Notes under the pieces: model-generated | What the model was told of the DNA's origin: nothing | Database searches by the model: none | Seen by the model: only the letters and a program-made list of their open reading frames with translations | Virus record (IMG/VR): IMGVR_UViG_3300034107_000273 | Coordinates: 43,957-107,956 of that record | Origin: a virus | Reading direction: 5' to 3' (one strand) | DNA: 64,000 bases | Position numbers and translations under genes: made by a program | In this document: positions 9,644-57,283 of the stretch, piece by piece | Layout of the letters: every line of letters starts with the position of its first letter | Numbering within the stretch: position 1 is the first letter of the stretch

Positions 9644-9645
9644 AA

Positions 9646-11254: not shown

Positions 11255-11281
11255 ACACCTGAGCATGTGTATAAACTGCTC
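11255..11281 (+). ncRNA. 3'-UTR H-type pseudoknot element, copy 1
   Basis: ACAC-CT-GAGCA-T-GTGT-ATAAAC-TGCTC, 5 nt after hsp20 stop. Confidence 0.7.
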
Positions 11282-11356
11282 AATATTCACTTGGATTTAA
11301 TCATAAGTTTACCAATTATAACAAAAGTATATAGTTTTACACTATATACTATAAGT

Positions 11357-13702: not shown

Positions 13703-14283
13703 TGAAAGTTCTAGGGGATAAAATTTTTATTATAGAAAATTTTATATCTGTTGATACTGCAAACTTTTTAGTAGATTCATTTACTGAGAATATACAGCCA
13801 ACAGTTCACCCTGGAATATACAGCGGACCAGGCCAAGGAGACAATGAAGCCTATAAAATCAGTGGTCAACACAAGATCAAGCAATATGATTCAAAAAATA
13901 ACATTGCTATTGATATAATGACAAGTCTTTGTCCAAGTATGGAAAAGGTTATGTCTAATGTATTCAATAAAAACCTACAATTAAAGTCTATTTCTTATGT
14001 TCATATGAAATCAGGTGGAAAAAATGATCTTCACTATGATAACTATAGTGAAGAATACAAGGATGATTACTCAGGTATTTTATATTTAACAGATAAATAC
14101 TTAGGTGGCGCTTTAAATTTTCCTAACAATGACATAAAAATAGAGCCTAAAATAGGAGATTTTATATGTTTTGTTGGTGACAACGAACTAGAGCATGAGG
14201 TTCAAGAAGTAATTCAAGGAGATCGTGTTAATCTAGTATGTTTTTTTAATGAAAAAGGAAAAGATATATATGCCAATCTATGA
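13702..14283 (+). CDS. 2OG-Fe(II) oxygenase
   Basis: HYD...YLTDKYLGG...HEV...GDR. Confidence 0.85.
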   Translation: MKVLGDKIFIIENFISVDTANFLVDSFTENIQPTVHPGIYSGPGQGDNEAYKISGQHKIKQYDSKNNIAIDIMTSLCPSMEKVMSNVFNKNLQLKSISYVHMKSGGKNDLHYDNYSEEYKDDYSGILYLTDKYLGGALNFPNNDIKIEPKIGDFICFVGDNELEHEVQEVIQGDRVNLVCFFNEKGKDIYANL

Positions 14284-17892: not shown

Positions 17893-18180
17893 ATGAAGCA
17901 ACACTTATGGAAAGATGAAGGTGCTTGCTTTGATATGGACACAAATTTATTTTTTGATAAATATGAAGACGATGAATTGATTAGACCAATAATAGATAAT
18001 CTTTGTCAATCATGTCCAGTTCAAAGAATATGTTTTGCCAATGGTGTATCTGGTAAAGAGTGGGGAATTTGGGGCGGTATTTACCTAGAAAATGGTGAAA
18101 TATCTAGAGAGTTTAGTAAACATAGAACAAAAGAAAAGTGGGGTGAAGTATGGAAATCTCTAACAATGGAGAAGAATTAA
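17893..18180 (+). CDS. whiB: WhiB-family Fe-S transcription factor
   Basis: W...AC...FF...CxxCPVxxxC...GIWGG. Confidence 0.92.
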   Translation: MKQHLWKDEGACFDMDTNLFFDKYEDDELIRPIIDNLCQSCPVQRICFANGVSGKEWGIWGGIYLENGEISREFSKHRTKEKWGEVWKSLTMEKN

Positions 18181-19623: not shown

Positions 19624-20310
19624 ATGTCAAAAACAGCTCTCATAATGTGTACTTATATAAGGTTTGAAAACCTTAAAATGACTTTAGGATGCCTACAAAG
19701 GCAAACTAATCAAGACTTTGATTTTTATATAGTTGATAATTCTAATAGACATGATAAACTATTAGGGTATATTAAAAAATTTGGCAACGGAATTGATGTA
19801 ACTGTACATAACTACCAGAATGACTTTAAACAATTTGCTAGGTTCTTGTTAGCAAGAGAACTGGCTGAACAAGGATATGAAAAGATAATCTTTATTGATG
19901 ATGATGAGATTATTCCAGATACTTTTATACAAGAGTGTCATGATCAGTATGAAGAAAATTCTGTTAAAACATTTTGGGCTCATTTTGTAGATAGTATATA
20001 CAATAAAAAAATAAAATTAGAACATAACGAAATAGGAAACTATGCAGGAACAGGTGGTTTGATATGTCACTCAAGTTTATTTCTTAATGATGATTTTTTT
20101 GATTGCCCAGAGGATTACTGGATCATTGATGATCTTTGGTTATCTTTTTACATATTAAAACATACAAACCTTAAGATTAAAGAGCTTAAAACAAACATAC
20201 ATTTTATAAAAGACAACAAAGCAACATTTATGACTCTTGGTAACTTAAAGCAAAAATTTTCTGAAGAATTTATTATTCCAGTATCTAAGTCTTTAGGGCT
20301 AAAGATTTAA
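19624..20310 (+). CDS. GT-A (family 2-like) glycosyltransferase
   Basis: IVDNS and FIDDD (DxD) motifs. Confidence 0.8.
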   Translation: MSKTALIMCTYIRFENLKMTLGCLQRQTNQDFDFYIVDNSNRHDKLLGYIKKFGNGIDVTVHNYQNDFKQFARFLLARELAEQGYEKIIFIDDDEIIPDTFIQECHDQYEENSVKTFWAHFVDSIYNKKIKLEHNEIGNYAGTGGLICHSSLFLNDDFFDCPEDYWIIDDLWLSFYILKHTNLKIKELKTNIHFIKDNKATFMTLGNLKQKFSEEFIIPVSKSLGLKI

Positions 20311-21333
20311 TAAGTCTTGATATTTTTGATATAAAACTTCATTAGAAAAATTATTAAATCCTATATCAAAAGCCTTAGATTTAGCGGTAGAGATATCACT
20401 ATCATAGTAATGATCAATTAAACTAGCAAGCATCTTAGCATCACCCTCATATACATCAAGCATTGTACGAGTCATTAGCCTATCAGTCTTTACAGAATCT
20501 ACAAGCCATTCTTTTGGAAGTATACTGTTGTTGGGAGATACATTGGTCATAAAAACGGGTAGAGAGGCCAATAGAGCTTCGTTCATAGGCAAACACAACC
20601 CTGCATATCTTCTAGGCAAGATCATAGCGTCATAGCCCTCATATAGGCTTTCTCGTGAGTCTGGACTAGAGGTATCAATAGTCAGTCTTGGATCATCGCA
20701 GGGTATGTCCAAAGGTGTCTGACTCTTAATAACAAGTTCATAATCAGCATTAGAATATTTAAGCATTTCAACTACTGTATTTGTACCATTTCTGTCCTTT
20801 ACCGCAGCCTTTCCACCAATATGTAGTATTTTTTTATGTGTCTTAGATGTGTTAATCTTATTTGCATTAGCAAACAATTCTACTCTTGTTGGAGGGGGAA
20901 GATGAACAACCATTGATCTATCGCTAAATTTTGTTACAACATCTTCAAAGTTCCAGAGACTAGGGGAAACTAAAATATCTGGTAGTTCAACATCTGGGTT
21001 TACTAAATAATCTAAAAACTCATAGTTATATTGAAGAATAGTTTTAACTTTTCTTTTCTTAGCCATATTGACAAAAGAGCTATGATAAAAGATTTCACAA
21101 CTAATTACTACATCTAAATCATCTAAGAATTCATATACTTCTTCTCTAGAAGCCATGCCACGCTTAGTAGTTGTAACATTATATCCTGAGTACCATTCTG
21201 GATGTTGTTTATTTCCATTGAAGTGTGATGAATCAATAAGAAGGATCTTACTAGGATTAAGCATCTTAACTAATTCCATAGTTTGATTACCTAAACCAGT
21301 GTTATCAGATCTTGCGATGATTCCTAATCTCAT
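20299..21333 (-). CDS. GT-B (family 4-like) glycosyltransferase
   Basis: PRRYAGLCLPMNEALLASLPV motif. Confidence 0.8.
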   Translation of the reverse strand: MRLGIIARSDNTGLGNQTMELVKMLNPSKILLIDSSHFNGNKQHPEWYSGYNVTTTKRGMASREEVYEFLDDLDVVISCEIFYHSSFVNMAKKRKVKTILQYNYEFLDYLVNPDVELPDILVSPSLWNFEDVVTKFSDRSMVVHLPPPTRVELFANANKINTSKTHKKILHIGGKAAVKDRNGTNTVVEMLKYSNADYELVIKSQTPLDIPCDDPRLTIDTSSPDSRESLYEGYDAMILPRRYAGLCLPMNEALLASLPVFMTNVSPNNSILPKEWLVDSVKTDRLMTRTMLDVYEGDAKMLASLIDHYYDSDISTAKSKAFDIGFNNFSNEVLYQKYQDLLNL

Positions 21334-21995
21334 AAGTCCATCTCTCTATAAAGCTGTCTTAATCCTTTTAGTGTTCCAATATCCATATATTTACCTCCAG
21401 GCTTTACTGCCATTATATTTCTACCGTCTAATATCCAGTCCTTGATTTGTTTTCCAGGATGCTCTAGTGTTGGATCTAAATATCTAATCATGTTTTTTCT
21501 AAACATCATAGTGCCCCACATGTCTGGATAATCACAATCTTCTACTTTATCTTCAGAGCCAATTACTTTATCTCCAGAAACTAAAACCTGTCCAACACGA
21601 CCTTTTATATCATTACTGCACTCCCAAACACCTAGAACTAAATCAGCATTTGTTTCTTTCATCATTGCTTTATAAATATTTACTGGTGAATTCAAGATAT
21701 AAGTATCTGGCATACCAACAAGAACGGTATCATTTTGCTCACCAACCATAAACTTTACGGCATCTGACATTGTTGACGGTTCACGAACAATTAACTTAAC
21801 ATTCATATCCATGTTTTGTATAATAGGAACCCATTCAGCCCTAGTTGATATACGAACTTCATCACATACTTCTAACATTTGTTCTACATGCCATTGAAGC
21901 AAAGATCTTTCATCAGATATAGGCAAACAAAACTTTGGTATACCGCCAATTCTAGATGCTTTTCCAGATGCTGGTAAAATTCCTATTGTTTGCAT
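21330..21995 (-). CDS. sugar-phosphate nucleotidyltransferase
   Basis: ILPASGKASRIGGIPKFCLP and YMDIGT motifs. Confidence 0.85.
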   Translation of the reverse strand: MQTIGILPASGKASRIGGIPKFCLPISDERSLLQWHVEQMLEVCDEVRISTRAEWVPIIQNMDMNVKLIVREPSTMSDAVKFMVGEQNDTVLVGMPDTYILNSPVNIYKAMMKETNADLVLGVWECSNDIKGRVGQVLVSGDKVIGSEDKVEDCDYPDMWGTMMFRKNMIRYLDPTLEHPGKQIKDWILDGRNIMAVKPGGKYMDIGTLKGLRQLYREMDL

Positions 21996-22783
21996 TAGAT
22001 TAACCCATAGTTTTTCTTTAAAGTTTCTATACTATTTACTGGCCAATAATCTAAAGATTTTGTAGGATCATTGAATGGATACTTATATTCGCCCCATCCT
22101 TCTCTTGTTCTATCTCCGCCCCACTTAGACTTAAAGTAATCATGAAGAGGTTCAATATTAATTCTTAGTCCGTCTATTGTTGCACCGCCGTCTATTTGAC
22201 ATGTTACATCAACTTCTGCAGCAGGGGCGTTTATTCTCATTACATAACTTATAGGTGTGTTAGAATGTACAAACTGACTACGCCAAGAAACTTCAACATC
22301 CGAATTAGGATTGCTCATAACTTGTTCTTCAAGTATTCTGCACCTTTGATCCCAGTCACAATCATCAAAATTGTAAGGATAAAAGTTTTCATCAAAGTAT
22401 CCAATTGCTGCAACCAGCTTTTTATTTATTCCAGCTAAATGCCATCCATGCTGTGTCCTAAACATTAGACCATTAAATCCATCAAGCATATCAACTATAT
22501 GAGAAAAAGGTTTATTAAATAACATTGAAGACGAAACAAAAAAGGTCCAGTCATGGTTCTTTTTTAATCCTATGTTCCATGCTCTTGCCAAACCAATATT
22601 CTCTGATTGATACTCTACTTGAAAGCCATATTTTTTTTCAAATACTTCACACTCTCTATTACCGCTATTATCTATAAGTAAAACATTTTTATCTCGTATA
22701 GATTCCATGCAGTTGTATATTCTTTCTGTTACTCTATAAATAGGTATACAAATTAAGTAGTCAATCTTAGTATCTGTTTCCAT
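21995..22783 (-). CDS. GT2-like glycosyltransferase
   Basis: LIDNS, NIGLARAWN and GYFDENF motifs. Confidence 0.8.
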   Translation of the reverse strand: METDTKIDYLICIPIYRVTERIYNCMESIRDKNVLLIDNSGNRECEVFEKKYGFQVEYQSENIGLARAWNIGLKKNHDWTFFVSSSMLFNKPFSHIVDMLDGFNGLMFRTQHGWHLAGINKKLVAAIGYFDENFYPYNFDDCDWDQRCRILEEQVMSNPNSDVEVSWRSQFVHSNTPISYVMRINAPAAEVDVTCQIDGGATIDGLRINIEPLHDYFKSKWGGDRTREGWGEYKYPFNDPTKSLDYWPVNSIETLKKNYGLI

Positions 22784-23465
22784 AAATATAACCTCCTCGT
22801 TCTGGGCTGCCTAAAATTTCTAATCCAAATTGCTTAGATAGCTTTTCAACCATAATTCCAAATCTGCCGTCAAAAGATTTATCAAACTCAAGCGTAATAT
22901 ATTTAATCTTTGCAAGTGTTTCAGGTGGCGTATTAATGATAAGATCAAACTCAGCACCTTCAATGTCTATTTTTACAACATCTATTTCATCAATACCATA
23001 TAGGTCAATAAAGTCTTGAATGGTTATTGCTAAAACTTCTACAGATTCATCATTTGTTTCATTAATAATGCTGCTATTTCCGCCTTTATTGGTAATAAGA
23101 ACAGTCTTTTGTTCATGCCAGATAGCATTATTTATAACTGTAATATTTTCTGTTGGATTGTTTTTAATATTTTCTTTTAGTAATAAAAGATTGTTAGGCT
23201 CTGGTTCAACAGAGTAAACCTTTATTTTGTTATATTCATCTCTAACTTTGTTAAAGTTATCTACATATAAGCTAACGGACCCAATATTTGCTCCAATATC
23301 AAGAAAAACTGCATTGTCTTTAAATTGATACTCATGTATTCTATAAACATTTTCATTCCATGTTTCATCAATTACCTTATAGTCTAAGTTATGATCATTG
23401 CTTGGATCATCAAGAAAACTTCTAATTTCAAATGAGTAGTTTTCATTTATTGTTTTATAATTCAT
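22767..23465 (-). CDS. FkbM-family methyltransferase
   Basis: LDIGANIG, VEPEP and KIDIEGAE motifs. Confidence 0.9.
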   Translation of the reverse strand: MNYKTINENYSFEIRSFLDDPSNDHNLDYKVIDETWNENVYRIHEYQFKDNAVFLDIGANIGSVSLYVDNFNKVRDEYNKIKVYSVEPEPNNLLLLKENIKNNPTENITVINNAIWHEQKTVLITNKGGNSSIINETNDESVEVLAITIQDFIDLYGIDEIDVVKIDIEGAEFDLIINTPPETLAKIKYITLEFDKSFDGRFGIMVEKLSKQFGLEILGSPERGGYIYGNRY

Positions 23466-24415
23466 ATTCCTAGATCCTCTAGTATTTTTTGCCATCTATG
23501 TTTATAAGTATAATTACTCTTAACCAAACTATGCCCTGCTAATCTAATCTTTTCACGTTCATCATCATTCTCAATGTAGTAATCAATTAATTGTTGAAGT
23601 TGTTCAAAATTATTATATTCATAAAAAACAACATGCTCTCTATCAGTAAATTCTTTTTCAAGTCCAGGTACGTATGGGTGTATTAAGAATCCTCCGCGAC
23701 CAAGAGTTTCATAAATTCTATCTGACCAATAGTCAGGGTAATTAAAATCAATACATAAAGTATCACCAACCACTACCTTGGTAGACCAATAAAGTTTATT
23801 TAGATCTAGCCCTCTTATTGATCTAACTCCACCATTTCCATAATGCTCAAATCTATTTCCATATGTTTTGTCTAGCCAATCAATTAATTTTGGACGGTAA
23901 GGCCATTCAGAATGATACTTTTTACTACCAACAAATAGAACATCATGCTTTTTGGTAACATCCCTAATAGTACATTCAGGACCAAATACACCAGCAGGCA
24001 AGTAGTGGCCTTTAACTTCAGTCTTTTCGTTAAACCAGTTTGCCATCTGACTATCAACAGTAAAGAAATGATCAATCATTTTGTATACAGGAAATGACTC
24101 AAGATCTTTTTGTCTTTGAAGCCCAAACCATAAATCAAGATGGTATGTCATGCTTGGAATAGATAAAGTTTTTAATGTTTGAAGAAGTTTTTCCATGCTG
24201 ATCTTGCCTTGTGTTTCCCAGCCATGTGTGTGTATCCAAATAAACAGATCGCTACTTACGCATGCAGCTAAAATATCTTCTGATCTAGCCTCAGACTCTT
24301 GCATTCTTATTACATTATGTCCAAGTTCCTCTAAAGATTTTGCATGGTGAGATTCGCTTGTGTAGTCAACACGAAAGTTACCTAAAAAAACTATATTTGA
24401 CAACGATTCCCCCAT
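23462..24415 (-). CDS. glycosyltransferase (CgeB/Glyco_trans_1_2-like)
   Basis: DVLFVGS, SDRIYETLGRGGFLI and TYKHRW motifs; exact start uncertain. Confidence 0.8.
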   Translation of the reverse strand: MGESLSNIVFLGNFRVDYTSESHHAKSLEELGHNVIRMQESEARSEDILAACVSSDLFIWIHTHGWETQGKISMEKLLQTLKTLSIPSMTYHLDLWFGLQRQKDLESFPVYKMIDHFFTVDSQMANWFNEKTEVKGHYLPAGVFGPECTIRDVTKKHDVLFVGSKKYHSEWPYRPKLIDWLDKTYGNRFEHYGNGGVRSIRGLDLNKLYWSTKVVVGDTLCIDFNYPDYWSDRIYETLGRGGFLIHPYVPGLEKEFTDREHVVFYEYNNFEQLQQLIDYYIENDDEREKIRLAGHSLVKSNYTYKHRWQKILEDLGI

Positions 24416-24445
24416 TTTATTATAAAACAATTGTATCATGCTTTG

Positions 24446-24518
24446 TACCCCTGGCAGGAATTGAACCTGCGACACCAGGCTTAGAAGTCCTGTGTTCTAT
24501 CCACTGAACTACAGAGGT
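24446..24518 (-). tRNA. tRNA-Arg(TCT)
   Basis: cloverleaf, anticodon loop CTTCTAA, GGTTCAATTCC T-arm. Confidence 0.9.
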
Positions 24519-26622: not shown

Positions 26623-27288
26623 CTACAGCCACTCTTGTTCTCTTCTTACATCTATATTCCATAAACCGTCTATAGCAAAGTCTTGTGATTTTTTAAGATC
26701 ATAATATTTTTTATTTTTATGAAAGGTTTCAGCATATCTATTAAGCAATTCTGAATCACTTTGAATGGTTTGTGATGGTCCAGATGGGGCAACAACTTCA
26801 ACTGCACGATTATGAAATGTTAATACTTGAGGGTTATCTTGTTTTGCTATGCGAAAAAATCTTTCTTGATAGTCATCATCTTCACCTGTATATGGGTAAA
26901 AATGCTCATCAAATAAGCCAACTTTTCTAACTATATTTTCTCCAATAGAAAAACAACTAAATCCTTCACTTGAACCTATTATATTTGATTCACCGCTAAC
27001 TTCATAAAACTTTTCTAAAGATCCTGGTAGCCAATGTGTATCCGCAGAAGAAAATAGCCAGTATTTTTCATGAGGATAAAGCTTAATAGTTAAGTTCCAC
27101 GATCCAGACATTCCTAAATTAGATGGAAGGTTAAGTACCCTAACATTTAAATCTTTTCTCTTAGGTTCGTAATCTTCTTTTCCATTATTGATAATCAATA
27201 TTTCTTTAATTGGAAAGTCTATTAGGTTTAAATTTTCATCTAATAGGTCATATCTGTTTAAAACTGGTATTGATAAAACTGGTATCAT
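26623..27288 (-). CDS. GT2-like glycosyltransferase (paralog of 21995-22783)
   Basis: IINNG, NLGMSGSWN and GLFDEHFYP motifs. Confidence 0.8.
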   Translation of the reverse strand: MIPVLSIPVLNRYDLLDENLNLIDFPIKEILIINNGKEDYEPKRKDLNVRVLNLPSNLGMSGSWNLTIKLYPHEKYWLFSSADTHWLPGSLEKFYEVSGESNIIGSSEGFSCFSIGENIVRKVGLFDEHFYPYTGEDDDYQERFFRIAKQDNPQVLTFHNRAVEVVAPSGPSQTIQSDSELLNRYAETFHKNKKYYDLKKSQDFAIDGLWNIDVRREQEWL

Positions 27289-27575
27289 TATGAGGATAAG
27301 CCCATTTTTAAATGATGGTCGCATACGTCTGCAATGATATACTCTTCGTTATCTAGTATTACATCAAAGTACTTGGCATCTTTCTCGCAGTACACGCATT
27401 TTCCTGATTTCATATATCTATCATATCATATCTGGTTTTAAGTTCGGCGACGATATAGAGGTATCAAACCTTACATGCTCCAAAGGAGCACTATTGGTTA
27501 GCATCCACATCTTTGTCCCATATTATTAAACACTTTGTACAGGTAATACCTGCATCCCTCATATACCAAGTATGC

Positions 27576-47506: not shown

Positions 47507-48244
47507 ATGGCCATATCAAAAAATATGGATGCTCCAAAAACCAGATATTCTGAAGCAGTAAAATCAACCAAAAGCATAGAGGCTAACAATACTGAGTATA
47601 TAGCCGTGCCAGGAATACAGGGAGAAAAAGGTGAGGTAGGCCCCGCAGGACCACAAGGACCTCAAGGCCCAAGAGGAGAGCGTGGTATTCCTGGAAAAGA
47701 TGGTAAAGAAGGACCAAAAGGCCCTAAAGGTGATCCTGGTAAGGGCGGTGGAGAGGGTTACGAAAGTTCATCAGGTCAATATCCAGGATGGGCATATTAT
47801 CAAAACAAAAATAAAAAACCATTATTTTTAGGCCCTGATAGAGGTCATGATGGTTGGGTAAATATTTTTATGGATGATGATGCAGATAATAATATTTTAA
47901 GATTTCTTCCAAAAGGCTCAGTTTCACTTTGGAATTCAGTGACACAAAGAATCAACCTAAAGGGTTTAAAAGCAGGATCTATTATAACAATTCGTTATGA
48001 TATTACTTTAAGCACATTTAACAATAATACAGAGGTTTGGTTTAGGACAGTTACCCCAGACCTTTCATATGGGCCTACGACTTTGGTTGGCAACTTAAAA
48101 TATCAGTTTGAATACGACCTATCCCTAGAACATACATTTTTTGTAGAAAATGAAAAAATGAAAAACCTAGGTGCATACTCACAGGTCCTTACTGATAATG
48201 AGTCTTCAATGATCGTTAAGTCTATGTATATAAATATTCTTTAA
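47507..48244 (+). CDS. collagen-like repeat protein
   Basis: about 15 Gly-X-Y triplets followed by a globular C-terminal domain. Confidence 0.8.
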
Positions 48245-48314
48245 AATAAAAATGTAAAATTAATATAATTGTCTGTATGTTTAAAATGTGTTATTTTGTG
48301 GTATACTTATGAAC

Positions 48315-49394
48315 ATGAGCGCCCAGAAACCTAATTCCATTGATTCTTCAACAAAGTCAGCGCCACTTGCACCTACAATAGGAACAGCAACAAATGTTGG
48401 AACTGGTCGTGCCTATAATAATGGTTCTGCAACAATTACATTTACTGCACCTACATTTGATGGAAAACTACCAATCACTTCTTATACTGTAACATCTAGC
48501 ACTGGTGGATTTACAGCATCTGGTGCTTCATCTCCATTAACTGTAACAGGTCTTGCTTCTGGTACAGCATATACATTTACAGTAACTGCTACTAATGCAG
48601 TTGGCACAAGTCCTGCTTCTGCAGCATCCAATAGCATTACTGCAACTACTGTTCCACAGGCTCCAACTATTGGAACTCCAACAGTTGCTACTGGTCAGGC
48701 TTATAGTGGATCTGCTTCTGTATCTGTTCCATTTACCACTAACGCAACTGGTGGTTCTACTATTACTAGTTATACAGTTACATCTTCATCAGGAAATACT
48801 GCTTCTGGTTCATCTTCTCCTATTTTAGTATCTGATACTGTAGGAACTGCTCGTACTTATACAGTTACCGCCACAAATGCAAATGGAACATCTACTGCCT
48901 CTTCTGCTAGTTCTTCTGTTACACCTTCTTCTGTTCCACAGGCTCCTACAATTGGTACCGCTACTGGTGGCGCAAGTGGTGTTGTGTCAGTACCTTTTAC
49001 AGCTAACGCAACTGGTGGTTCTTCAGTTACTGGATTTACTGCGACATCTTCTTCTGGACGTACTGCTTCAGGAGCTTCTTCTCCAATTCCGTTTACAGAA
49101 ATTTCTGCTGGAACTTATACTTATACAGTTAGAGCAACAAATGCAAATGGTAACTCTGCAGCATCTGCTGCAAGTAATTCTGTAGTGTCAACATTTGGTC
49201 CGTTCTTCCCACCGTTCTTCCCATTCTTCCCACCATTCTTTCCACCTTTCTTTCCATTTTTCCCATTCTTCCCACCGTTCTTCCCACCGTTCTTCCCAAC
49301 ATTTGGTCCATTCTTCCCACCTACATTTGGTCCATTCTTCCCACCGTTCTTCCCATTCTTCCCTCCAAGATTTGGTGGCGGTGGAGCAGTCTAA
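48315..49394 (+). CDS. three-FN3-repeat protein with C-terminal Pro/Phe repeat tail
   Basis: 3x APTIGT...FT...G...IT.YTVTSS...YTFTV.ATN; tail (PFF/PPFF)n. Confidence 0.8.
   Translation: MSAQKPNSIDSSTKSAPLAPTIGTATNVGTGRAYNNGSATITFTAPTFDGKLPITSYTVTSSTGGFTASGASSPLTVTGLASGTAYTFTVTATNAVGTSPASAASNSITATTVPQAPTIGTPTVATGQAYSGSASVSVPFTTNATGGSTITSYTVTSSSGNTASGSSSPILVSDTVGTARTYTVTATNANGTSTASSASSSVTPSSVPQAPTIGTATGGASGVVSVPFTANATGGSSVTGFTATSSSGRTASGASSPIPFTEISAGTYTYTVRATNANGNSAASAASNSVVSTFGPFFPPFFPFFPPFFPPFFPFFPFFPPFFPPFFPTFGPFFPPTFGPFFPPFFPFFPPRFGGGGAV
49191..49373 (+). repeat. coding low-complexity repeat TFGPFFPPFFPFF...
   Basis: about 60 residues almost entirely P and F, with synonymous codon variation. 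Confidence 0.9.
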
Positions 49395-49459
49395 ACGGTA
49401 TCCTGAATAATACAAATATATTCCATATGATATACTTGTTTTAAACAGGGGGTAACAAA

Positions 49460-50173
49460 ATGAACTCTTATGACGAAAATTCAAACGAGTGGTTTACAAA
49501 AGATCGTTCAGAGACATCATCCAATAGATCTAGTATCAGAGAGATAAACTACAATATCTCAGTAGAAAATCCAGCTCTTGGATTAAATATTTATAAAAAT
49601 ACATTCTCTGCTACAGATGCAAATAGGTATATAGACATTCTTGAGTCTAACCTATCAGGAGATAAAAAATATAAATGGTCAGAAGCACAAGTTACCAACT
49701 CTACAGTTCCGATTAAAAAAGCACGAGACTGTGTAGACTTTAAATATAAACAAGAAAACCTGGGTGCGAGAGATGAAAACAATTCTGAACTCTTAGATCT
49801 TCATCAAGAAATATATGAAAAGCTAAAGTTTTGTATAGACGATTATGCAAGGTACTGGGGAATTAATGTTGTATATTACGAAGCCTTTAACTTTGTAAAG
49901 TATGAAGGAGAAGGAACCCACTTTAATATTCATGCAGACCACGGACCAGCATATAACTGTACAGTGTCTGCTGTTATCTATATTAACGATGATTACGAGG
50001 GTGGCGAGATTAAGTTCCCAAGACTTGACAACTATGTTCATAAACCAAGAGTAGGAGATATAGCGGTTTTCCCATCTAACTATATATATGAGCATGCATC
50101 ACTTCCTATGAAGTCTGGAACAAAGTATTGTGTTGTTGTTATGACAGATATCAATGAATTGGGACACAAGTAA
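49460..50173 (+). CDS. 2OG-Fe(II) oxygenase (P4Hc-like)
   Basis: HAD...YINDDYEGG...FPS...H...GTKY. Confidence 0.88.
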   Translation: MNSYDENSNEWFTKDRSETSSNRSSIREINYNISVENPALGLNIYKNTFSATDANRYIDILESNLSGDKKYKWSEAQVTNSTVPIKKARDCVDFKYKQENLGARDENNSELLDLHQEIYEKLKFCIDDYARYWGINVVYYEAFNFVKYEGEGTHFNIHADHGPAYNCTVSAVIYINDDYEGGEIKFPRLDNYVHKPRVGDIAVFPSNYIYEHASLPMKSGTKYCVVVMTDINELGHK

Positions 50174-50943
50174 TGTCTTTAGTTGCTATATTTAGATCCT
50201 TTAGGCCATGGATTAACAAAGATAGCAAGTCTACTCCTACATCAACTCAAAATGAAATACCTCAATGGTATAAGGATGCTGATAGATTTGCAAAAAATGA
50301 ATTAACTGGTGAGTACTATAAAGCACCAAAAGAGGTTTGCCCATTTCCAAAAGAAGGAACACAGGATGACTATGGAAAGATTCCAACATGGAAAGCGTGT
50401 CCAGCAATCATGGATGCATTTTTAACTGGATATGTATTAAAGACTCCTTGTGATCTTATATTTTTTAAAAATGAAAATGGATCAATAGATGTTAGAATTG
50501 ATGATGAAAAACATTTAGATTTTTGTAGCAAAAGATTTGCAATGCCACAATTTGAACATCCAAAAGGTTTTTATAAAGATCACTTTGCATGGTATCCAGA
50601 CTGGGGATTAGAGTTGCCAGAAGGATATAGCGCAATCTATATGACTCCAATGAATAGATTTGATTTACCATTTATGAATACAACTGGAATTATTGATAAT
50701 GATAGTGTTCATCTTTTAGGGACAATACCCTTTTTTATTCCAGAGGGATGGGAAGGAACTATTCCAGCAGGAACTCCTTATGTACAAATAATTCCATTTA
50801 AGAGAGAAAACTGGTATCATGAACTAGAATATTTAAATCATAAAGATATGTATGATAGAATGATATCAAATGCAAGTTTTTACCGTCAGCCTGATGGCGG
50901 TGTATATAAGAATAAGGTTTGGACTAGAAGAGAATATAAATAG
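50173..50943 (+). CDS. DUF6065-related hypothetical protein
   Basis: KACPAIMDAFLTGY, TGIIDND and GTPYVQIIPFKRE motifs. Confidence 0.5.
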   Translation: MSLVAIFRSFRPWINKDSKSTPTSTQNEIPQWYKDADRFAKNELTGEYYKAPKEVCPFPKEGTQDDYGKIPTWKACPAIMDAFLTGYVLKTPCDLIFFKNENGSIDVRIDDEKHLDFCSKRFAMPQFEHPKGFYKDHFAWYPDWGLELPEGYSAIYMTPMNRFDLPFMNTTGIIDNDSVHLLGTIPFFIPEGWEGTIPAGTPYVQIIPFKRENWYHELEYLNHKDMYDRMISNASFYRQPDGGVYKNKVWTRREYK

Positions 50944-50951
50944 GGGGAAAT

Positions 50952-51608
50952 ATGAATACTTGGACAGAGAAGGTAAATTTTGGTAATGGAATTGTTTGTT
51001 ATCGTAATGTAATTAATTCTGATATCAAAGTTATAGAAAGACTTGAGGCTAACTTAAAGCCAGAAGGAGACAAAACGGGCTACAGCTGGTTGCCAGCGTA
51101 TGTAGGCTATGGTGATTTAATGCCAGAATACAGAGATTGCAATGACTTTAAGTTTAAAAAAACAGACCTTCAATATGATAAAAGTGAAACATCTGTAAAT
51201 CTTCAAAGCCTATGGCAAGATGTTTATGATGTTCAGTTCCCAGCAGTTGAAGACTATAGAAGAGACTATAACATTATGGATCTTAGATACTGGGAGGCTT
51301 TTAACTTTATCAAGTATGGCCCAGGACAACATTTTCAAGAACATCATGATCACGGGTTCTCATACAACTGTACTGTGTCACTTGTAGCATATCCAAATGA
51401 TGACTATGAGGGTGGAGAACTATACTTTAGATTACAAGATTTAAAGATTAAGCCACAAGCTGGAGACCTATACATATTTCCATCTAATTTTATGTATCCT
51501 CATAAAGCTATGCCAGTTTTATCTGGAACAAAGTATTCAATAGTTACAATGCTTGATTACAACAAAAAGTTCCATACTCCAGAAATGTATGAGCCAGACA
51601 AAGAATAA
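50952..51608 (+). CDS. 2OG-Fe(II) oxygenase
   Basis: HHD...NDDYEGG...FPSNFMYPH...GTKY. Confidence 0.88.
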   Translation: MNTWTEKVNFGNGIVCYRNVINSDIKVIERLEANLKPEGDKTGYSWLPAYVGYGDLMPEYRDCNDFKFKKTDLQYDKSETSVNLQSLWQDVYDVQFPAVEDYRRDYNIMDLRYWEAFNFIKYGPGQHFQEHHDHGFSYNCTVSLVAYPNDDYEGGELYFRLQDLKIKPQAGDLYIFPSNFMYPHKAMPVLSGTKYSIVTMLDYNKKFHTPEMYEPDKE

Positions 51609-52324
51609 TGATAAACATAATTGCTGAAAAAGTAAAAGGATCTCATATAAACGTTACACCAATGTCTATAAAAAGAGATTGGATGGATGAAACTCCAGAA
51701 AAGCACGCATATAGGTGTTTTCCAGTAACACAAGCAAATATGATAGGTTGGACGCTATCTTGTGATATTGACATTAAGTTTATTTGGAATGGAGTAAATG
51801 ATACATCCTCAGAAAATGTAAAAATTTTAGAAGGTGGTGACATTGTTTACACTGGTAGAGGTCAGTCTAGTGTAAGCTTTACAACTGGTCTGGTTTTTAA
51901 ATCACCAGAAAACATAAGCCTTCTTGCTATTAATCCATCCAACTACTTTAATAAAGACTTTGAAACCATATCTTCTCTAATCAGTACTTCTTGGTATGAT
52001 AATGATTTTCCATTAGCAATAAAAGCACTCACTCCAAATAAAGAGATCACAATAAAATCTGGGGAGCCTTTAGCAACTATAATTCCTGTATCCTTAACGA
52101 ATATGGACAAAAGTTGTATAGAGATCGTTGATTATTTAGACAATGATAACTCTAGATCTAATGCTCGTAAAACATATGGAGAGGCAGCACAAAAGCTAAA
52201 CACTGCGGGGGCATGGACAGATTGGTATAGAGATGCAGTAAATGAAAAAGGTGAGAGTGTTGGCTCTCATGAAATAAAAGCTTTACGTCTTAATGTTCAA
52301 GATAACACACAAGGCAAATCATAG
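51608..52324 (+). CDS. DUF6065-family protein
   Basis: RDWMD...HAYRCFPV..AN..GW signature. Confidence 0.65.
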   Translation: MINIIAEKVKGSHINVTPMSIKRDWMDETPEKHAYRCFPVTQANMIGWTLSCDIDIKFIWNGVNDTSSENVKILEGGDIVYTGRGQSSVSFTTGLVFKSPENISLLAINPSNYFNKDFETISSLISTSWYDNDFPLAIKALTPNKEITIKSGEPLATIIPVSLTNMDKSCIEIVDYLDNDNSRSNARKTYGEAAQKLNTAGAWTDWYRDAVNEKGESVGSHEIKALRLNVQDNTQGKS

Positions 52325-52343
52325 GAAATGGTATAATCTAATT

Positions 52344-53018
52344 ATGGATAATATAGAAGCTTCTGTTGTAATAAGAAAACCATCAATGACACCTTCTGGC
52401 TGGTTTGGCAATGGCAAAGAGATGATTGTTGAATTAGAAAATTTTATGACAGCCCAAGAGATAGAGTTTTTAGAGAAGGCTGCAAAGTCATTAACAATCT
52501 GGGATGTTACAGAAAGCCATGTAAATGAAAATGGAACAGTTGTTTATGATTCAGACTACTGGAAAGATAGGGTAGCAACAAGTCCAACACTTAATAAAAA
52601 TGATCCAACAATTGCCCCAGTGATTGCAGGATTGTTTGAAAGACTTAAGCCAATCGTTGAAGAGTTCTATAAGGTAAAGGTTACACCTACTGGTACAACT
52701 ATCGTTAGATGGCTTCCAGGGCAGTTTCAGAAGCCTCACGCAGACAAGGAACTACATGAAGGACCAGACGCTGGACTTCCAAATGATTTTCCAAACTATG
52801 ACCTATCAAGCTTATTTTACTTAAACGACGACTATGAAGGTGGGGAACTGTACTTCCCACTACAGGGTGTACAGTTTAAACCAAAAAAGGGTGCTGCTTA
52901 TTTTTTCCCAGGGGACATGAACTATGTACACGGAGTAACAGAAATCAAGAGCGGTATTAGATATACCTGCCCATTCTTCTGGGAAATTACAGAACATACT
53001 GGAGACAGGAAGCCATAA
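52344..53018 (+). CDS. 2OG-Fe(II) oxygenase
   Basis: HAD...YLNDDYEGG...HGV...GIRY. Confidence 0.88.
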   Translation: MDNIEASVVIRKPSMTPSGWFGNGKEMIVELENFMTAQEIEFLEKAAKSLTIWDVTESHVNENGTVVYDSDYWKDRVATSPTLNKNDPTIAPVIAGLFERLKPIVEEFYKVKVTPTGTTIVRWLPGQFQKPHADKELHEGPDAGLPNDFPNYDLSSLFYLNDDYEGGELYFPLQGVQFKPKKGAAYFFPGDMNYVHGVTEIKSGIRYTCPFFWEITEHTGDRKP

Positions 53019-53891
53019 ATGACAACATCAAACCTTGAAGCAGTAGAAATATATCCAAACATTCTTGTTTACAAAAACATGTTTAAAGATATTTCAAAAT
53101 CTTACAAGGTTTTAACAGATTCTTTAGTAGAGTCAGAAGACAGACTTTTTAGTCCTTGGACACAGTGGTCTATTTTTGGCGACTATTTAAACCCTATAGT
53201 TCCTAATTTTTCTATGTCAGATAGACATGGTAATTTAAAAAATATAGAGACTTCAACAGAGATTCAAGAAAGTCAAAAAAACTTTGTTATAGAGATGCTG
53301 GAAAATTTTCACTTGGTCACAGAGGACTATATTAAAAGACATGATATTGATGTAGATTTAAACGATACATCTGTAGATGAGCTTGGTAATACCGTACCTA
53401 CCTGGAGATGGACTGGAGGAACAGTGGGAAGGTATCACATAAGCACTGATTCAGAGCCTGTAGGGATGAGGTATCATTCAGATTATATGAGAGAGCAAGG
53501 AAGTTCTCCAGGCTATAAGTTTGTAATAACTTGTACAATTTATTTTAACGATGACTATGAAGGCGGAGAAGTAGACTTTGTGATGGGAGACAAACTTGTA
53601 AAGTACAAGCCAGAGGCTGGAGATCTTTTAGTCTTCCCATCGGGTCATCCAGACTACTTGACAGAAGAAGGTAAGCCGTACCTTCACGGGGTTATGCCAT
53701 CATACAATAATAATAAGTTTTTAGCAAGAATGTATTGGCAAAAATATCAAAAAGGGACAGATGAGTGGTATGAAAAAGAAGCAGAGTTTGGAAAAAAAGT
53801 CTGGGCAAAAATGCAGCCAGAACTAGAAGAACAGTTTAGACTAAAGCATCCACAAAGAGCAGTAATAGAAAATGGAGTGAGATTAAAATGA
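53019..53891 (+). CDS. 2OG-Fe(II) oxygenase
   Basis: HSD...YFNDDYEGG...HGV...KF. Confidence 0.85.
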   Translation: MTTSNLEAVEIYPNILVYKNMFKDISKSYKVLTDSLVESEDRLFSPWTQWSIFGDYLNPIVPNFSMSDRHGNLKNIETSTEIQESQKNFVIEMLENFHLVTEDYIKRHDIDVDLNDTSVDELGNTVPTWRWTGGTVGRYHISTDSEPVGMRYHSDYMREQGSSPGYKFVITCTIYFNDDYEGGEVDFVMGDKLVKYKPEAGDLLVFPSGHPDYLTEEGKPYLHGVMPSYNNNKFLARMYWQKYQKGTDEWYEKEAEFGKKVWAKMQPELEEQFRLKHPQRAVIENGVRLK

Positions 53892-54643
53892 ACTTAAACA
53901 ATAAAGTTAGATTGACAAAAGATATTGTTCTTTATGAAAACTTTTTAACTAAAGAAGAGTCTGAAAAGATTATTCAAGTTTTAGATAAACAGTCTGAAAA
54001 TGGTGGTATTTCTTGGATGCCTATATCATTTTATGAATCATACTCTTCAGTTTTGCCACAAGACAACGATCAAGAAGTTATTGATGCTGGATTAAACCCA
54101 ACCATATTTTCAGACATTGAAAATGCAATGCCAGAAGCAATTGCATCAGTACATGGACTTGACCCAAAAACAATTTCAAAAATTGGATACCATACGCAAA
54201 AATGGGAGCCAGGAGCATATGCAAGAGTTCACTCAGATAATACTGACGAGCATGGTAACTCTGGAGCATTTACAAGAAGTAGATACGCTGGATTCTTATA
54301 CCTGAACGATGACTTTCAAGGTGGTCTTCTTAGATTCCCAGATCAAGACATAGAGATTAAACCACAGGTAGGAATGCTTGCTGTTTTTGATGGGGGATTT
54401 AACAACATGCACGAAGTATCTCTAATAGAAAGTGGAGTAAGATACACCATTGGGTCTTTCTGGGATGATAGAGAAGAGTCAGATTACCCACAAGAACTAC
54501 GAGATGCATGGGCTGCAGAAATGAAAGCTACTAGAGCAGAACAAGAAATTGAAAGAGCAGAATGGCAGGAGTTGCTTAAGCAGGGTTGGAAACTAGATAA
54601 AGATGGAAAAAAATACAAGTTAGAAGACATTGTAAATGATTGA
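53888..54643 (+). CDS. 2OG-Fe(II) oxygenase
   Basis: HSD...YLNDDFQGG...HEV...GVRY. Confidence 0.88.
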   Translation: MNLNNKVRLTKDIVLYENFLTKEESEKIIQVLDKQSENGGISWMPISFYESYSSVLPQDNDQEVIDAGLNPTIFSDIENAMPEAIASVHGLDPKTISKIGYHTQKWEPGAYARVHSDNTDEHGNSGAFTRSRYAGFLYLNDDFQGGLLRFPDQDIEIKPQVGMLAVFDGGFNNMHEVSLIESGVRYTIGSFWDDREESDYPQELRDAWAAEMKATRAEQEIERAEWQELLKQGWKLDKDGKKYKLEDIVND

Positions 54644-55295
54644 TACTTTTAAAAAACACTTAATAGATAGTGGGTATGAAGTTAAAGATATTACTCCAGA
54701 ACTATTCTCTGTTGAAAACTTTTTATCAGAAGATCAGATAAACACATTTTGGGATATTATTAATAGTACATCTCAAGAAGACTGGGAAGTAGAGTATCAC
54801 GCAAACCTAAAAAACTTTTGTATGCAAAAATTTGGTAGAGATGATGTAGACAATTTAGTTGCTGAAGGTAAGTTTGAAATTACTCAAAATTGGAAAGATA
54901 AAAACTTTAATATATCAAGTCATGAAATATACAGGCCATTATATGAGGGCATAAACTCAATGGTAGTAGAGTCTGATCCAGAGTTGGTTTTGAGTGGTTT
55001 TGCAACAATTCAAAGAATGCAAGCAGGAGTAGAGTTAAAAGCGCATACTGACCAAAGAACAGACCCATCTATAAAATACGCTACGATTGTGTATATTAAT
55101 GATAACTACGCAGATGGTGAACTGTTTTTTCCAAATCTTGATATCCAGTTAAAGCCTAAGCCAGGAACTATGTTATTTTTTCCAGGTAATGAGCAATATG
55201 AGCATGGAGTTAAGCACGTAGGAGAGGGTCCAATAAGATATGTTCTTGTTGGGTTTATTAAAGAAAAAAACTTTTATGAAAAAAATAAGTACTAG
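54636..55295 (+). CDS. 2OG-Fe(II) oxygenase
   Basis: HTD...YINDNYADG...HGV...IRY. Confidence 0.88.
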   Translation: MIDTFKKHLIDSGYEVKDITPELFSVENFLSEDQINTFWDIINSTSQEDWEVEYHANLKNFCMQKFGRDDVDNLVAEGKFEITQNWKDKNFNISSHEIYRPLYEGINSMVVESDPELVLSGFATIQRMQAGVELKAHTDQRTDPSIKYATIVYINDNYADGELFFPNLDIQLKPKPGTMLFFPGNEQYEHGVKHVGEGPIRYVLVGFIKEKNFYEKNKY

Positions 55296-55304
55296 GAGAA
55301 TCAA

Positions 55305-56039
55305 ATGAATAAAGAAATACTAGATCCAAAAGCATACTACTATACGGATGCTATTGAAGACTTTGATACCTTTAAAAAGGTTTGGAAAGAGTTAGACGAC
55401 CTTGAGCAATATACAGAGTCAGGTGTAAATGTTTGGAACCCTTGGACCGCCTCTAATGATAAAAATTTTATTTACGGAGAAACAAAAACATTTGATATTA
55501 ATGCGATAAATAGGCTTAGTGGAGAAGTAGCGGAAAAAAGTAAATATATTTACGATGCTATTATGACTACGATGTATAACGTTTGCAAAGACTACGCCTC
55601 TTCTTTAGGTGATTTTGACGAGCCAAGACTTTTCCCAACCTTTAATATAAAAAAGTACAATACTGGAGTTGGCATGGGCGCACATTTTGACCAGCTAGAT
55701 GGGGATAAGACATTAAGATACTCATTGGTTATGTACTTAAATGATGACTGTGAAGGCGGAGAAATTTCTTTTCAGTTAAAAGACTATGATGGCGGATGGA
55801 CAAGTGCAGATGGTTTCTCTAAAGGATCAGCACCAGCTGTAGATTTAGATTATGATATATCTGTTGCTAATGGTGCAATTGATTTTGGATTAAAACCAAA
55901 AGCAAATAGTGTAATTATATTTCCAGCATTTCCTCCATATTTTCACACGGCACATGTAGTAAAGTCTGGATTTAAGTATATGATTCCTGGTCACTGGATA
56001 CATAATGAAATGAATCTTAATCGCAACGAAAGCATGTAA
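55305..56039 (+). CDS. 2OG-Fe(II) oxygenase
   Basis: HFD...YLNDDCEGG...HTA...GFKY. Confidence 0.88.
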   Translation: MNKEILDPKAYYYTDAIEDFDTFKKVWKELDDLEQYTESGVNVWNPWTASNDKNFIYGETKTFDINAINRLSGEVAEKSKYIYDAIMTTMYNVCKDYASSLGDFDEPRLFPTFNIKKYNTGVGMGAHFDQLDGDKTLRYSLVMYLNDDCEGGEISFQLKDYDGGWTSADGFSKGSAPAVDLDYDISVANGAIDFGLKPKANSVIIFPAFPPYFHTAHVVKSGFKYMIPGHWIHNEMNLNRNESM

Positions 56040-56708
56040 ATGAAAACGGCAATCGTTACTGGATCTAGCAAGGGTGTTGGGTATGCAACAGTAAAACTGC
56101 TATCTGAAAGTGGATATAGGGTCATAGCAGTCTCTAGAGACTTATCAAGGGTATCTCAGATAGACTCTGATAATGTTGAAACATATCAACTAGATATAAC
56201 TGATTCAAAACAAATAGAAGAATTCTTTGAAAAATATAAAGACATAACCCTAGATCTTTTAGTTAATAATGCTGGTGGTGGATCTAGCCCAACAATGCTT
56301 ATCAATGAAACAATGGAAAATTTTAGAATTGCCTACGATATAAATGTTTCTGGACCAATGTATCTTTCTCAGCTTTTTGTTCCATGTATGCAAAGGTCTG
56401 ACTCACCAACCATTATATTTGTTAGTTCGTTAGGTGGAAAAGTTCCATATCGTAGTGGAGGAAACTATACAAACGCTAAAAGAGGCATGATGGCCCTAGT
56501 TGATACTATGCGATTAGAGTTTCCTGCATACGGTATTAAGGTTACTGAGATATGCCCTGGAACTATTGATACACTAATAGAAAAGCGTGAAATAGCACTA
56601 ACTGCTGAAGATCTTGCAGAGTCTATTAGATGGGTATCAGAGTTGCCAAGTCATTTTAATATTAATCATATTGAAATGAACCATATAAGCAGCAGTAAGT
56701 TTGCCTAG
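56040..56708 (+). CDS. short-chain dehydrogenase/reductase
   Basis: TGSSKGVG, NNAG and YxxxK (YTNAK) motifs. Confidence 0.9.
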   Translation: MKTAIVTGSSKGVGYATVKLLSESGYRVIAVSRDLSRVSQIDSDNVETYQLDITDSKQIEEFFEKYKDITLDLLVNNAGGGSSPTMLINETMENFRIAYDINVSGPMYLSQLFVPCMQRSDSPTIIFVSSLGGKVPYRSGGNYTNAKRGMMALVDTMRLEFPAYGIKVTEICPGTIDTLIEKREIALTAEDLAESIRWVSELPSHFNINHIEMNHISSSKFA

Positions 56709-56710
56709 AA

Positions 56711-57283
56711 CTAGGAAGGAAACCTAGTCATCCAAACCTTAGTCTTTGGCGTAATTCCATGCCAAGCAGACCAGTTTTTTCCACCGTTACTCATATGATA
56801 GGCAACCTGTGCATTAATAACAGGATTTAACAATTCACTGTTAAAGTTAATGCCAAACTTTGCCTTGCGATCATCCTTTAGCATTCCAATCATATTTATC
56901 TGGAATATACCGTAAGAATTGTCGCCAGTTTTTTCATTGCCATTAAAAGCCATTGGACGGCCATTAGACTCTTTTTTAGCTACCGCCCAAGCCTTCACAA
57001 GTCCATCACCACGAAAACCAACCGCATGTAGTAATTCTTTTAACTGACGATCTGTAAGGCTAACAGCATCTTGATATTTATGTAGAACGTTTAGGTCCTT
57101 TTTTACTGCTACCAGACTTCTAGGCTTAGAAACCAAAAAAACCGCCTTGGCGGTTGAAGGTTCAGACAGCGCTGGTTTACTTAGATTATTTTCAGTACTT
57201 AAAGCATTAGCTGCATTACTTAATGGTGCAATAAGCCCCAGTGCAGCAAGGATTCCAATCCAAATCTTTTTATCTCTTCTCAT
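56711..57283 (-). CDS. secreted lytic transglycosylase / lysozyme-like protein
   Basis: signal peptide; catalytic ES (KKESNG), GIFQIN and WSAW motifs. Confidence 0.8.
   Translation of the reverse strand: MRRDKKIWIGILAALGLIAPLSNAANALSTENNLSKPALSEPSTAKAVFLVSKPRSLVAVKKDLNVLHKYQDAVSLTDRQLKELLHAVGFRGDGLVKAWAVAKKESNGRPMAFNGNEKTGDNSYGIFQINMIGMLKDDRKAKFGINFNSELLNPVINAQVAYHMSNGGKNWSAWHGITPKTKVWMTRFPS

Follow-up and report, generated by a model that had tools for sequence, protein, structure and literature searches.

A Pro/Phe-repeat fiber-region protein and a linked cassette of putative protein hydroxylases in an uncultured phage lineage

Organization of the locus

In marine and freshwater phages, 2-oxoglutarate (2OG)- and Fe(II)-dependent oxygenases are numerous, and their function has been a matter of debate since at least 2010. 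Here, we describe a cassette of such genes in the IMG/VR virus record IMGVR_UViG_3300034107_000273, a genome of 107,956 bp that is rated complete by CheckV, has a GC content of approximately 36%, and derives from an uncultured lake phage with a probable actinobacterial host. Our analysis was centered on the terminal 64,000 nucleotides of this record (positions 43,957 to 107,956, hereafter the window, to which all coordinates refer unless stated otherwise). The region of interest (48315-56708) consists of a gene for a protein with three FN3 domains and a C-terminal Pro/Phe polymer, followed by ten tightly packed and co-oriented genes, which encode seven oxygenases of the PF13640 family (ox1 to ox7), two proteins related to DUF6065 (dufA and dufB), and a short-chain dehydrogenase/reductase (SDR). 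This arrangement had been recognized in an earlier sequence-only reading of the region and is confirmed by the open reading frames (ORFs), the fn3 match, and a tract of 59 residues. Spacings between the genes range from -32 to +9 nt, an operon-like packing, and the cassette lies on the strand of the structural genes. Its placement among virion fiber genes, which had also been claimed, is borne out by a gene for a collagen-like protein upstream and by genes for an SLT lysozyme and two large fiber proteins downstream.

The gene for the FN3 protein occupies 48288..49394 on the plus strand, and its product matches fn3 (PF00041, 2.5e-11) and, weakly, a minor tail protein family (phrog_6977, 1e-7). 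The ORF has 368 codons when read from the GTG at 48288 and 359 when read from the ATG at 48315. The latter is more likely to be the start, judging from an extended -10-like element (TGgTATACT, within 48297-48315) that sits just upstream and ends at 48307, 7 nt before the ATG, and the mRNA is perhaps leaderless, as is common in actinobacteria. A promoter scan returned sites no more numerous than in shuffled sequences, and no terminator was found between the tract gene and ox1.

The C-terminus of the protein reads TFGPFFPPFFPFFPP...FFPFFPPRFGGGGAV. Its Pro/Phe tract (49191..49367, plus strand) consists of PFF and PPFF units, is interrupted three times by TFG/T, and is followed by RFGGGGAV. At the DNA level, the tract is an imperfect tandem repeat with periods of 9, 12, 21, and 33, whose variation is silent in the Pro/Phe frame only, residues being changed in each of the other five frames. 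Phe codon use within the tract (TTC 23 : TTT 7) is the reverse of that in the whole genome (TTT 748 : TTC 204), and more than 100 related contigs keep the tract as a peptide while the DNA differs. The sequence-only reading had taken the synonymous codon variation to point to selection on the peptide.

In related phages, the tract joins the FN3 domains to hypervariable tips. A tip may be a short hydrophobic end, the form found here, a Hint-like domain, or a knot of 20-45 residues rich in Cys. The tract also occurs internally, in one to three copies, in fiber-sized proteins of 959-1561 aa. The tract is a module and not a tail alone; it behaves like the stalks and linkers of receptor-binding proteins, which argues against its being the precursor of a ribosomally synthesized and post-translationally modified peptide (RiPP). 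The sequence-only reading had spoken of a dedicated RiPP-like or extensin-like tailoring pathway. The RiPP part finds no support, since the tract belongs to a three-FN3 protein of 359-368 aa or serves as a linker within much larger proteins, and Pfam searches found no gene for a protease, a cyclase, or a recognition element. The extensin part fares no better: Ser-Pro(n) motifs of the Ser-Pro(3-5) kind are absent, and Tyr is rare in the tracts and missing from that of this genome. The tract also departs from collagen, its Gly residues being confined to the three TFG/FG interruptions. Cross-linking of the tract, which had been mentioned as well, is pure conjecture.

A Hint/intein-like C-terminal domain was observed after the repeat in several related loci (L124:1954-3249, L234:3566-6481, L080:9212-10381, and L088:9144-10460, as well as L051, L066, and L138). 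It starts with C/S-x-x-x-T/N-x-V...G...VGD and ends with ...CEPYD..F....HN, and Pfam gave a weak Hint_2 match for L234 only (E 0.0025, below the cut-off). If this self-processing module is real, the C-terminus of the tract would be released or transferred.

Linkage of the tract and the oxygenase cassette

The distribution of the tract was examined by scanning 2.9 million viral contigs with a degenerate DNA pattern for PFFPPFFPFFP. Oxygenase or DUF genes were located within 3 kb downstream of 80 of the 85 tract genes that have at least 3 kb of downstream DNA, elsewhere in the locus in three cases, and nowhere in the remaining two. From the side of the cassette, loci were retrieved by searching with dufA, and sufficient upstream DNA was required; a tract ORF was present within 3 kb upstream in 50 of 51 cassettes, and the sole exception (L124) has a shorter PFF/PSF/PGF tract composed of Pro, Phe, Ser, and Gly. 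The co-occurrence of PFF-type tails and oxygenase arrays that had been put forward as a check is seen in both directions, within one lineage. Among FN3 homologues, 21 of 24 of the PFF type are followed by an oxygenase, compared with 2 of 54 of other types (Fisher test, 8e-14, relatedness being ignored). The same pattern, applied to cellular genomes (596 Gb), detected true PFF ORFs only on five small freshwater contigs of metagenome-assembled genomes (MAGs), four of which carry cassette genes, while the fifth is only 1.8 kb long and stops shortly downstream of its tract gene. In these pattern scans, the tract was seen solely on phage contigs and on such small MAG contigs, and it is confined to the present phage lineage.

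Gene order offers a further view of this association. The block formed by the FN3 gene and the cassette lies either upstream or downstream of the block of slt/lysozyme and fiber genes in relatives, and the cassette itself occurs in at least three versions (ox1-dufA-ox2-dufB, ox1-ox2-dufB-dufA, and ox2-dufA-ox1-dufB), always with the tract gene directly before it. These observations support a tight and specific link between the Pro/Phe tail and the cassette across the lineage, and one that survives rearrangement. A natural control is provided by L080 (9212-12521), which has the same tail module and an FN3 protein (9212-10381) with a Pro-free (FGA)n repeat; the genes downstream of it encode a dufA-like protein, a DUF6817 protein, and ribonucleotide reductase (replication genes), and no oxygenase. 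Distant variants of the tract, with a PPPF repeat (L034) or a PPxFFA repeat (L061), still adjoin diverged oxygenases. In addition, an (FTPFG)n repeat was noticed in L083 and L088; the ORF downstream of it in L088 could not be demonstrated to be an oxygenase or a DUF6065 relative.

Oxygenases of the cassette

All seven oxygenases are encoded on the plus strand and are of the prolyl 4-hydroxylase (P4H) type. They are ox1 (49460..50173; PF13640 score 42.7 bits; H158, D160, H212, K222), ox2 (50952..51608; 54.1 bits; H131, D133, H184, K194), ox3 (52293..53018; 38 bits; H149, D151, H213, R223), ox4 (53019..53891; 36.2 bits; H153, D155, H223, K233), ox5 (53888..54643; 35.5 bits; H115, D117, H175, R185), ox6 (54636..55295; 43.7 bits; H137, D139, H190, R201), and ox7 (55305..56039; 33.1 bits; H127, D129, H214, K224). 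Each passes the Pfam gathering cut-off of 27 bits (33.1-54.1), and the intact HxD...H...K/R motifs reported by the sequence-only reading are present throughout. An insert and a helical C-terminal extension distinguish ox4, which is found in about half of the related cassettes, and ox7 has an insert of 32 residues. The HxD...H motif is invariant in an alignment of the nine PF13640 paralogues of the genome; moreover, the two His, the Asp, and the basic 2OG ligand (Lys or Arg) do not vary among the 66-132 distinct orthologues compared for each of ox1 to ox7 (132 for ox1). Since the seven paralogues of the cassette share only 20-45% identity with one another and each nevertheless has invariant catalytic residues across its orthologue group, they are, as far as sequence can tell, seven different maintained enzymes, neither recent duplicates nor decaying copies, and all seven look catalytically competent.

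Comparison with proteins of known structure points to a common enzyme type. The best matches of ox2 among PDB sequences are the animal lysyl hydroxylase LH3, the P4H of Bacillus anthracis (BaP4H), and mimivirus L230, and LH3 and L230 are matched by ox1 as well; ox3 matches BaP4H, vCPH of the chlorovirus PBCV-1, human C-P4H alpha-2, and P3H1, and BaP4H is the best match of ox6. The E-values of these matches (ox1, ox2, ox3, and ox6) are weak, yet consistent in type. The fold comparison for the double-stranded beta-helix covers ox1, whose AlphaFold2 model has a pLDDT of 90.9. The best 50 Foldseek rows for this model are all prolyl hydroxylases or uncharacterized PKHD/PiuC-type relatives (E 1.3e-9 to 1e-7), and they consist of Cr-P4H, PHD2, Pseudomonas putida P4H, vCPH, P3H1, BaP4H, C-P4H-II, and PKHD/PiuC. 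Sequence and predicted fold thus support the view that the cassette oxygenases are of the protein prolyl/lysyl hydroxylase type, and the earlier statement that this class includes prolyl hydroxylases agrees with both.

Several of these relatives act on structural or target proteins. Mimivirus L230, animal LH3, and the Dictyostelium Skp1 enzymes PhyA and Gnt1 exemplify a PF13640-type hydroxylation that is followed by O-glycosylation. LH3 is a collagen lysyl hydroxylase with glycosyltransferase activity, whereas no glycosyltransferase is present in the cassette, and the candidate substrate here is a Pro/Phe polymer rather than G-X-Y collagen or the single proline of Skp1. Collagen-like sequence is nevertheless close by: the protein encoded at 47507..48244 (plus strand; PF01391, 31.2 bits vs. 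a cut-off of 27.2) has Gly at every third residue in 17 G-X-Y triplets, with X-Pro-Gly and X-Lys-Gly sites (regular-expression search), and is a possible second substrate, although its gene adjoins the FN3 gene in only some of the related loci.

Enzymes of this type may also find their targets elsewhere. It is conceivable, if rather unlikely in our judgment, that other proteins are hydroxylated, such as host EF-Tu or ribosomal proteins, the collagen-like protein, the PPVI repeat of the tape measure protein, or Pro-Thr linkers, and that the tract is an unmodified rigid linker beside a site for accessory genes. Bacterial P4H relatives retrieved in the fold search do act on EF-Tu (4iw3 and 5v7y), and the genome offers other Pro-rich tracts (PPVIPPVIPPVV of the tape measure protein, a PTPTPTPEPTP linker, and the collagen-like protein) as well as two PF13640 genes far from the cassette. 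In other phages, Gly-rich FN3 fibers are at times accompanied by an oxygenase or DUF6065-like gene close by, and hydroxyproline was not detected in virions of PBCV-1, which encodes a related enzyme (PMC7019647). What such an explanation would leave unaccounted for is the restriction of the tract to cassette-bearing phages and the adjacency that is kept when blocks move. Furthermore, the collagen-like gene is adjacent in a subset of loci only, and L080 has kept the remainder of the tail module but neither the Pro-rich tract nor the oxygenases.

DUF6065-related proteins and the dehydrogenase

Two DUF6065-like proteins had been named in the sequence-only reading. Of these, dufB (51608..52324, plus strand) scores clearly with DUF6065 (PF19541, 113.8 bits vs. 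a cut-off of 26.6; 1.2e-32), whereas dufA (50173..50943, plus strand) has no Pfam match and is related to dufB through phrog_7084 (1.4e-31), to which both belong; their direct similarity is weak (BLASTP 2e-4). DUF6065 matches were obtained for 9 of the 61 sequences in the dufA family alignment, dufB included, so that, by sequence, dufA represents a family related to DUF6065 rather than a scored member of it. Neither protein resembles an oxygenase, and the dufA model has a dUTPase-like fold.

The dufA family is large, with 1447 cluster representatives at E ≤ 1e-3, and viruses account for 56-93% of the taxon-assigned members of the nearest ESM Atlas clusters. An invariant cysteine (Cys76) and several near-invariant polar residues suggest that its members are enzymes. 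In cultured viruses, tblastn searches found relatives of dufA only in haloarchaeal HF2-type viruses and one cyanophage, and no match to dufB was found among phages. As HF2-type myoviruses infect haloarchaea and encode a dufA-like protein, the family appears from sequence comparison to span bacterial and archaeal viruses. In Halorubrum phage HF2 itself (L295, 48119-49003), the dufA-like protein shows approximately 26% identity, and its gene is flanked by ribonucleotide reductase on one side and by the end of the tail module on the other.

The AlphaFold2 model of dufA has a pLDDT of 94.8. In VIA-align comparisons (Z 8.9-5.0), the top 22 rows are all chains of the dUTPase/dCTP deaminase superfamily, and Foldseek matches to the dUTPase superfamily have E-values of 5e-3 with probabilities of 0.99-1.0. 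The predicted all-beta fold is therefore dUTPase-like; Z values near 8 are middling, which indicates likeness of fold and not of function. By eye, SGIxDxD and GTPIxQII of dufA resemble dUTPase motifs III and IV, a resemblance only, and the sequence marks of dUTPases (PF00692 and five motifs, including the C-terminal P-loop-like motif V) are lacking in dufA. No PF00692 match was present in the genome at E ≤ 0.01, and the dufA family profile retrieved no chain among PDB sequences at E ≤ 10. The cassette ends with a classical SDR (56040..56708, plus strand; PF00106, 9e-40), for which NCBIfam models gave generic SDR families only, none above cut-off. It is kept at the cassette end in related loci.

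A fold of this kind raises the question of nucleotide chemistry. Modification of nucleotides or DNA, for instance by hydroxylation of a base and subsequent tailoring, with the dUTPase-fold proteins handling pyrimidine nucleotides, would suit the dUTPase/dCTP deaminase-like fold of dufA and the position of its HF2 homologue beside ribonucleotide reductase. The weak, sub-threshold match of ox3 to Tet_JBP (19.8 bits vs. 34.9) and a GT2 gene in the window with a weak match to TET-associated glycosyltransferases point in the same direction. We consider this very improbable: the oxygenases all score with PF13640 and are similar to protein P4Hs, none of them passing the Tet_JBP or AlkB models; dufA does not match dUTPase in sequence; and the cassette is situated in the late structural region, away from the replication genes.

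Relationship to cyanophage dioxygenase arrays

Proposed roles of 2OG-Fe(II) oxygenases in marine and freshwater phages comprise DNA repair, drawdown of 2OG, and secondary metabolism (PMC3037559, PMC2938197). The closest precedent for the present cassette was described by Iyer, Abhiman, de Souza, and Aravind in 2010 in Synechococcus phage Syn9, a cyanophage, where an array (gp41-gp54) of 10 dioxygenases and a dUTPase-fold Cys protein was proposed to synthesize a secondary metabolite, without a named substrate (PMC2938197). Both arrays consist of many diverged classical 2OG-Fe(II) dioxygenases in tandem with a dUTPase-fold protein with conserved Cys among them, and both directly follow tail-fiber genes; in addition, hhalign identifies Syn9 gp43 as a homologue of dufA (97.7% probability, E 2e-12). 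On this sequence evidence, the enzymes of the cassette are related, as a set, to the tandem dioxygenase array that has been known from Syn9 since 2010. There are also several differences. The Syn9 array further includes two tryptophan halogenases and a protein of the JmjC/MINA type, both of which are missing here, where every cassette ORF is a PF13640, DUF6065-like, or SDR protein; the examined part of the Syn9 array showed no SDR, whereas an SDR closes the present cassette; and the present array is accompanied by a repeat protein that is specific to the lineage. Our literature search on DUF6065 and on phage Pro/Phe repeats with 2OG enzymes found no paper on this system. Neither the lineage-specific Pro/Phe polymer nor its strict association with the array was thus encountered in the literature searched, whereas the type of array is known.

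The interpretation given for Syn9 can be carried over to the present locus. The dioxygenases, the SDR, and the two dUTPase-fold enzymes would then act in series on a free peptide, an amino acid, or a nucleotide-linked metabolite, and the Pro/Phe protein would be a mere neighbor. Apart from the homologous array and gp43, such a small-molecule pathway gains from the classical SDR at the end of the cassette, from the nucleotide-enzyme fold, conserved polar residues, and invariant Cys of dufA, and from the number of different oxygenases, which resembles serial tailoring. We regard it as distinctly unlikely, given that a scaffold-forming gene (for a nonribosomal peptide synthetase, ATP-grasp protein, polyketide synthase, or halogenase) is absent from the cassette and its flanks, that all seven oxygenases are of the P4H/PHD type, whose characterized members hydroxylate proteins, none being of the clavaminate or PhyH type, and that the link to the Pro/Phe gene is strict, specific, and resistant to rearrangement.

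Possible link to glycosylation

Relatives of dufA connect the family to a glycosyltransferase. One family representative, P0020 (552 aa), has a PF11397 domain (2.4e-30) fused to a dufA-like domain; PF11397 is the family to which the Skp1-hydroxyproline GlcNAc-transferase (Gnt1) belongs. In L033 (4403-6224), a dufA-like gene and, after it, a PF11397 gene lie downstream of a fiber gene whose product has a Tyr/Thr-rich tail, and PF11397-like genes were found in nine related loci near lysozyme or oxygenase genes, several of them beside genes of the fiber module. A scan of the viral contigs with the P0020 fusion protein returned no locus. Genes similar to dufA also follow 10 of 43 Gly-rich FN3 fiber genes that have no oxygenases. 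Because of this fusion and adjacency and of the occurrence after oxygenase-free Gly-rich fibers, dUTPase-fold proteins perhaps serve fiber tailoring more generally, with a step that involves a uridine-nucleotide sugar, while oxygenases appear to occur where the tail is Pro-rich.

A proposed role in fiber tailoring

The explanation that we favor, to which we would give about an even chance, is that P4H-type enzymes expressed late hydroxylate the Pro/Phe stalk of the phage's own fiber, and perhaps the collagen-like neighbor too, with the dUTPase-fold proteins as accessories. The substrate, the chemistry, and the roles suggested for the DUF6065-like proteins and the SDR are our reading of the gene content, the intact catalytic residues, the folds, and the linkage described above. 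Specifically, the cassette would be expressed late, as an operon-like set of genes for protein hydroxylases, and would tailor fiber proteins of the phage. The FN3 protein would be a tail-fiber or decoration protein whose distal stalk is the Pro/Phe polymer, most likely an extended polyproline-II-like rod, and the seven oxygenases would hydroxylate the prolines of the tract, each in its own sequence context or at its own ring position. They may also act on Pro and Lys residues of the collagen-like protein. Hydroxylation could stiffen and solubilize a segment that would otherwise be extremely hydrophobic. The two dUTPase-fold proteins with conserved Cys may be accessory enzymes for a step after hydroxylation that might depend on a uridine-nucleotide sugar, as is suggested by the dufA relatives that are fused to, or adjoin, a PF11397 glycosyltransferase in other phages. 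Of the tailoring pathway envisaged by the sequence-only reading, it is this self-hydroxylation of a fiber tail with which linkage and enzyme class are consistent.

The nearest viral parallel is PBCV-1, which encodes both a P4H-type enzyme, vCPH (PDB 5c5t), and Pro-rich repeat proteins that are its presumed substrates; vCPH is among the matches of ox3 in sequence and of ox1 in fold. Those repeats, described by Eriksson et al. in 1999, are reportedly of the Pro-Ala-Pro-Lys kind and without Phe. PBCV-1 further differs in having one enzyme in place of seven, a eukaryotic host, and no gene adjacency, dUTPase-fold partner, or SDR. Its P4H is active in vitro on Pro-containing peptides (PMC7019647).

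A number of points speak against self-hydroxylation of the stalk. All of the linkage lies inside one phage lineage and may represent few evolutionary events, and accessory genes are commonly located downstream of fiber genes. In Syn9, a homologous array occurs with no Pro/Phe-repeat protein nearby. Seven to ten different hydroxylases exceed the apparent need of one simple repeat, and the dUTPase-like fold and the SDR would also suit nucleotide or small-molecule chemistry. PF11397 was not found in this genome by phmmer across all ORFs, and another search likewise gave nothing, its controls also remaining unmatched. The failure to detect hydroxyproline in PBCV-1 virions, mentioned above (PMC7019647), belongs here as well. 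Finally, a dose test was performed on 53 distinct complete cassettes, in which the number of oxygenases (6-10) was compared with the length, Pro fraction, and Tyr fraction of the tract and with the length and Cys count of the tip. Oxygenase number was related to tract length alone among these five measures, and only weakly so (rho 0.28, p 0.046 uncorrected); it was not related to the Pro fraction of the tract (rho 0.09). We do not take this result as support.

A bolder version of the proposal is that the tract is a previously unknown viral structural biopolymer, in which 7-10 hydroxylases and the dUTPase-fold enzymes make a hydroxylated, and in some relatives glycosylated, stalk that bears a receptor-binding tip; this is possible but doubtful. 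In that case, the tandem dioxygenase arrays of phages, those of cyanophages among them, would gain their first substrate and a function. For the long-standing debate over phage 2OG-Fe(II) oxygenases, the lineage supplies a concrete and easily tested candidate substrate, a pure Pro/Phe polymer that is encoded beside the enzymes and that was not seen outside the cassette context of this lineage in the collections searched. If stalk hydroxylation is true, phages would build post-translationally hydroxylated fibers, as animals do collagen, and a new protein material would be defined. It would also provide a role for the large and mostly viral DUF6065-related family.

Other features of the genome

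The assignment to an actinobacterial host fits the presence of a gene for a WhiB-family protein (PF02467, 42.2 bits) at 17908-18081 (G000:61864-62037 in the numbering of the whole record), and Lake Mendota bins are represented among the related contigs and the mis-binned MAG contigs. No cultured close relative was found; a megablast search with the 8.4-kb region gave no match among 50,697 phage records. The boundary of the cassette is marked by the SLT-type lysozyme gene (56711..57283; PF18896, 1.6e-17), which lies on the minus strand.

Additional Pro-rich tracts on which P4H-type enzymes could act are present elsewhere in the genome. The tape measure protein (3303 aa; G000:C1:11889-21800, before the window) contains a PPVIPPVIPPVVPPVIPPVIP repeat of the PPVI type, and a 663-aa protein (7476-9467) contains a PTPTPTPTPEPTPTPE linker. 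Two PF13640 genes with intact HxD...H are located outside the cassette, at 3904-4437 and 13702-14283, one of them immediately before the large terminase gene.

Genes for glycosyltransferases and a methyltransferase are clustered on both strands at 19624-24475. This group comprises a GT2 gene (19624-20310, plus strand), whose match to TET-associated glycosyltransferases is weak and sub-threshold, a second weak GT2, an FkbM-type methyltransferase, and a Glyco_trans_1_2 gene; another GT2 is encoded at 26623-27324. In addition, a gene for a PstS-like phosphate-binding protein was identified at 11267-12400 (phrog_5385, 2e-40), an auxiliary metabolic gene that is known from cyanophages and is carried here by a presumed actinophage.

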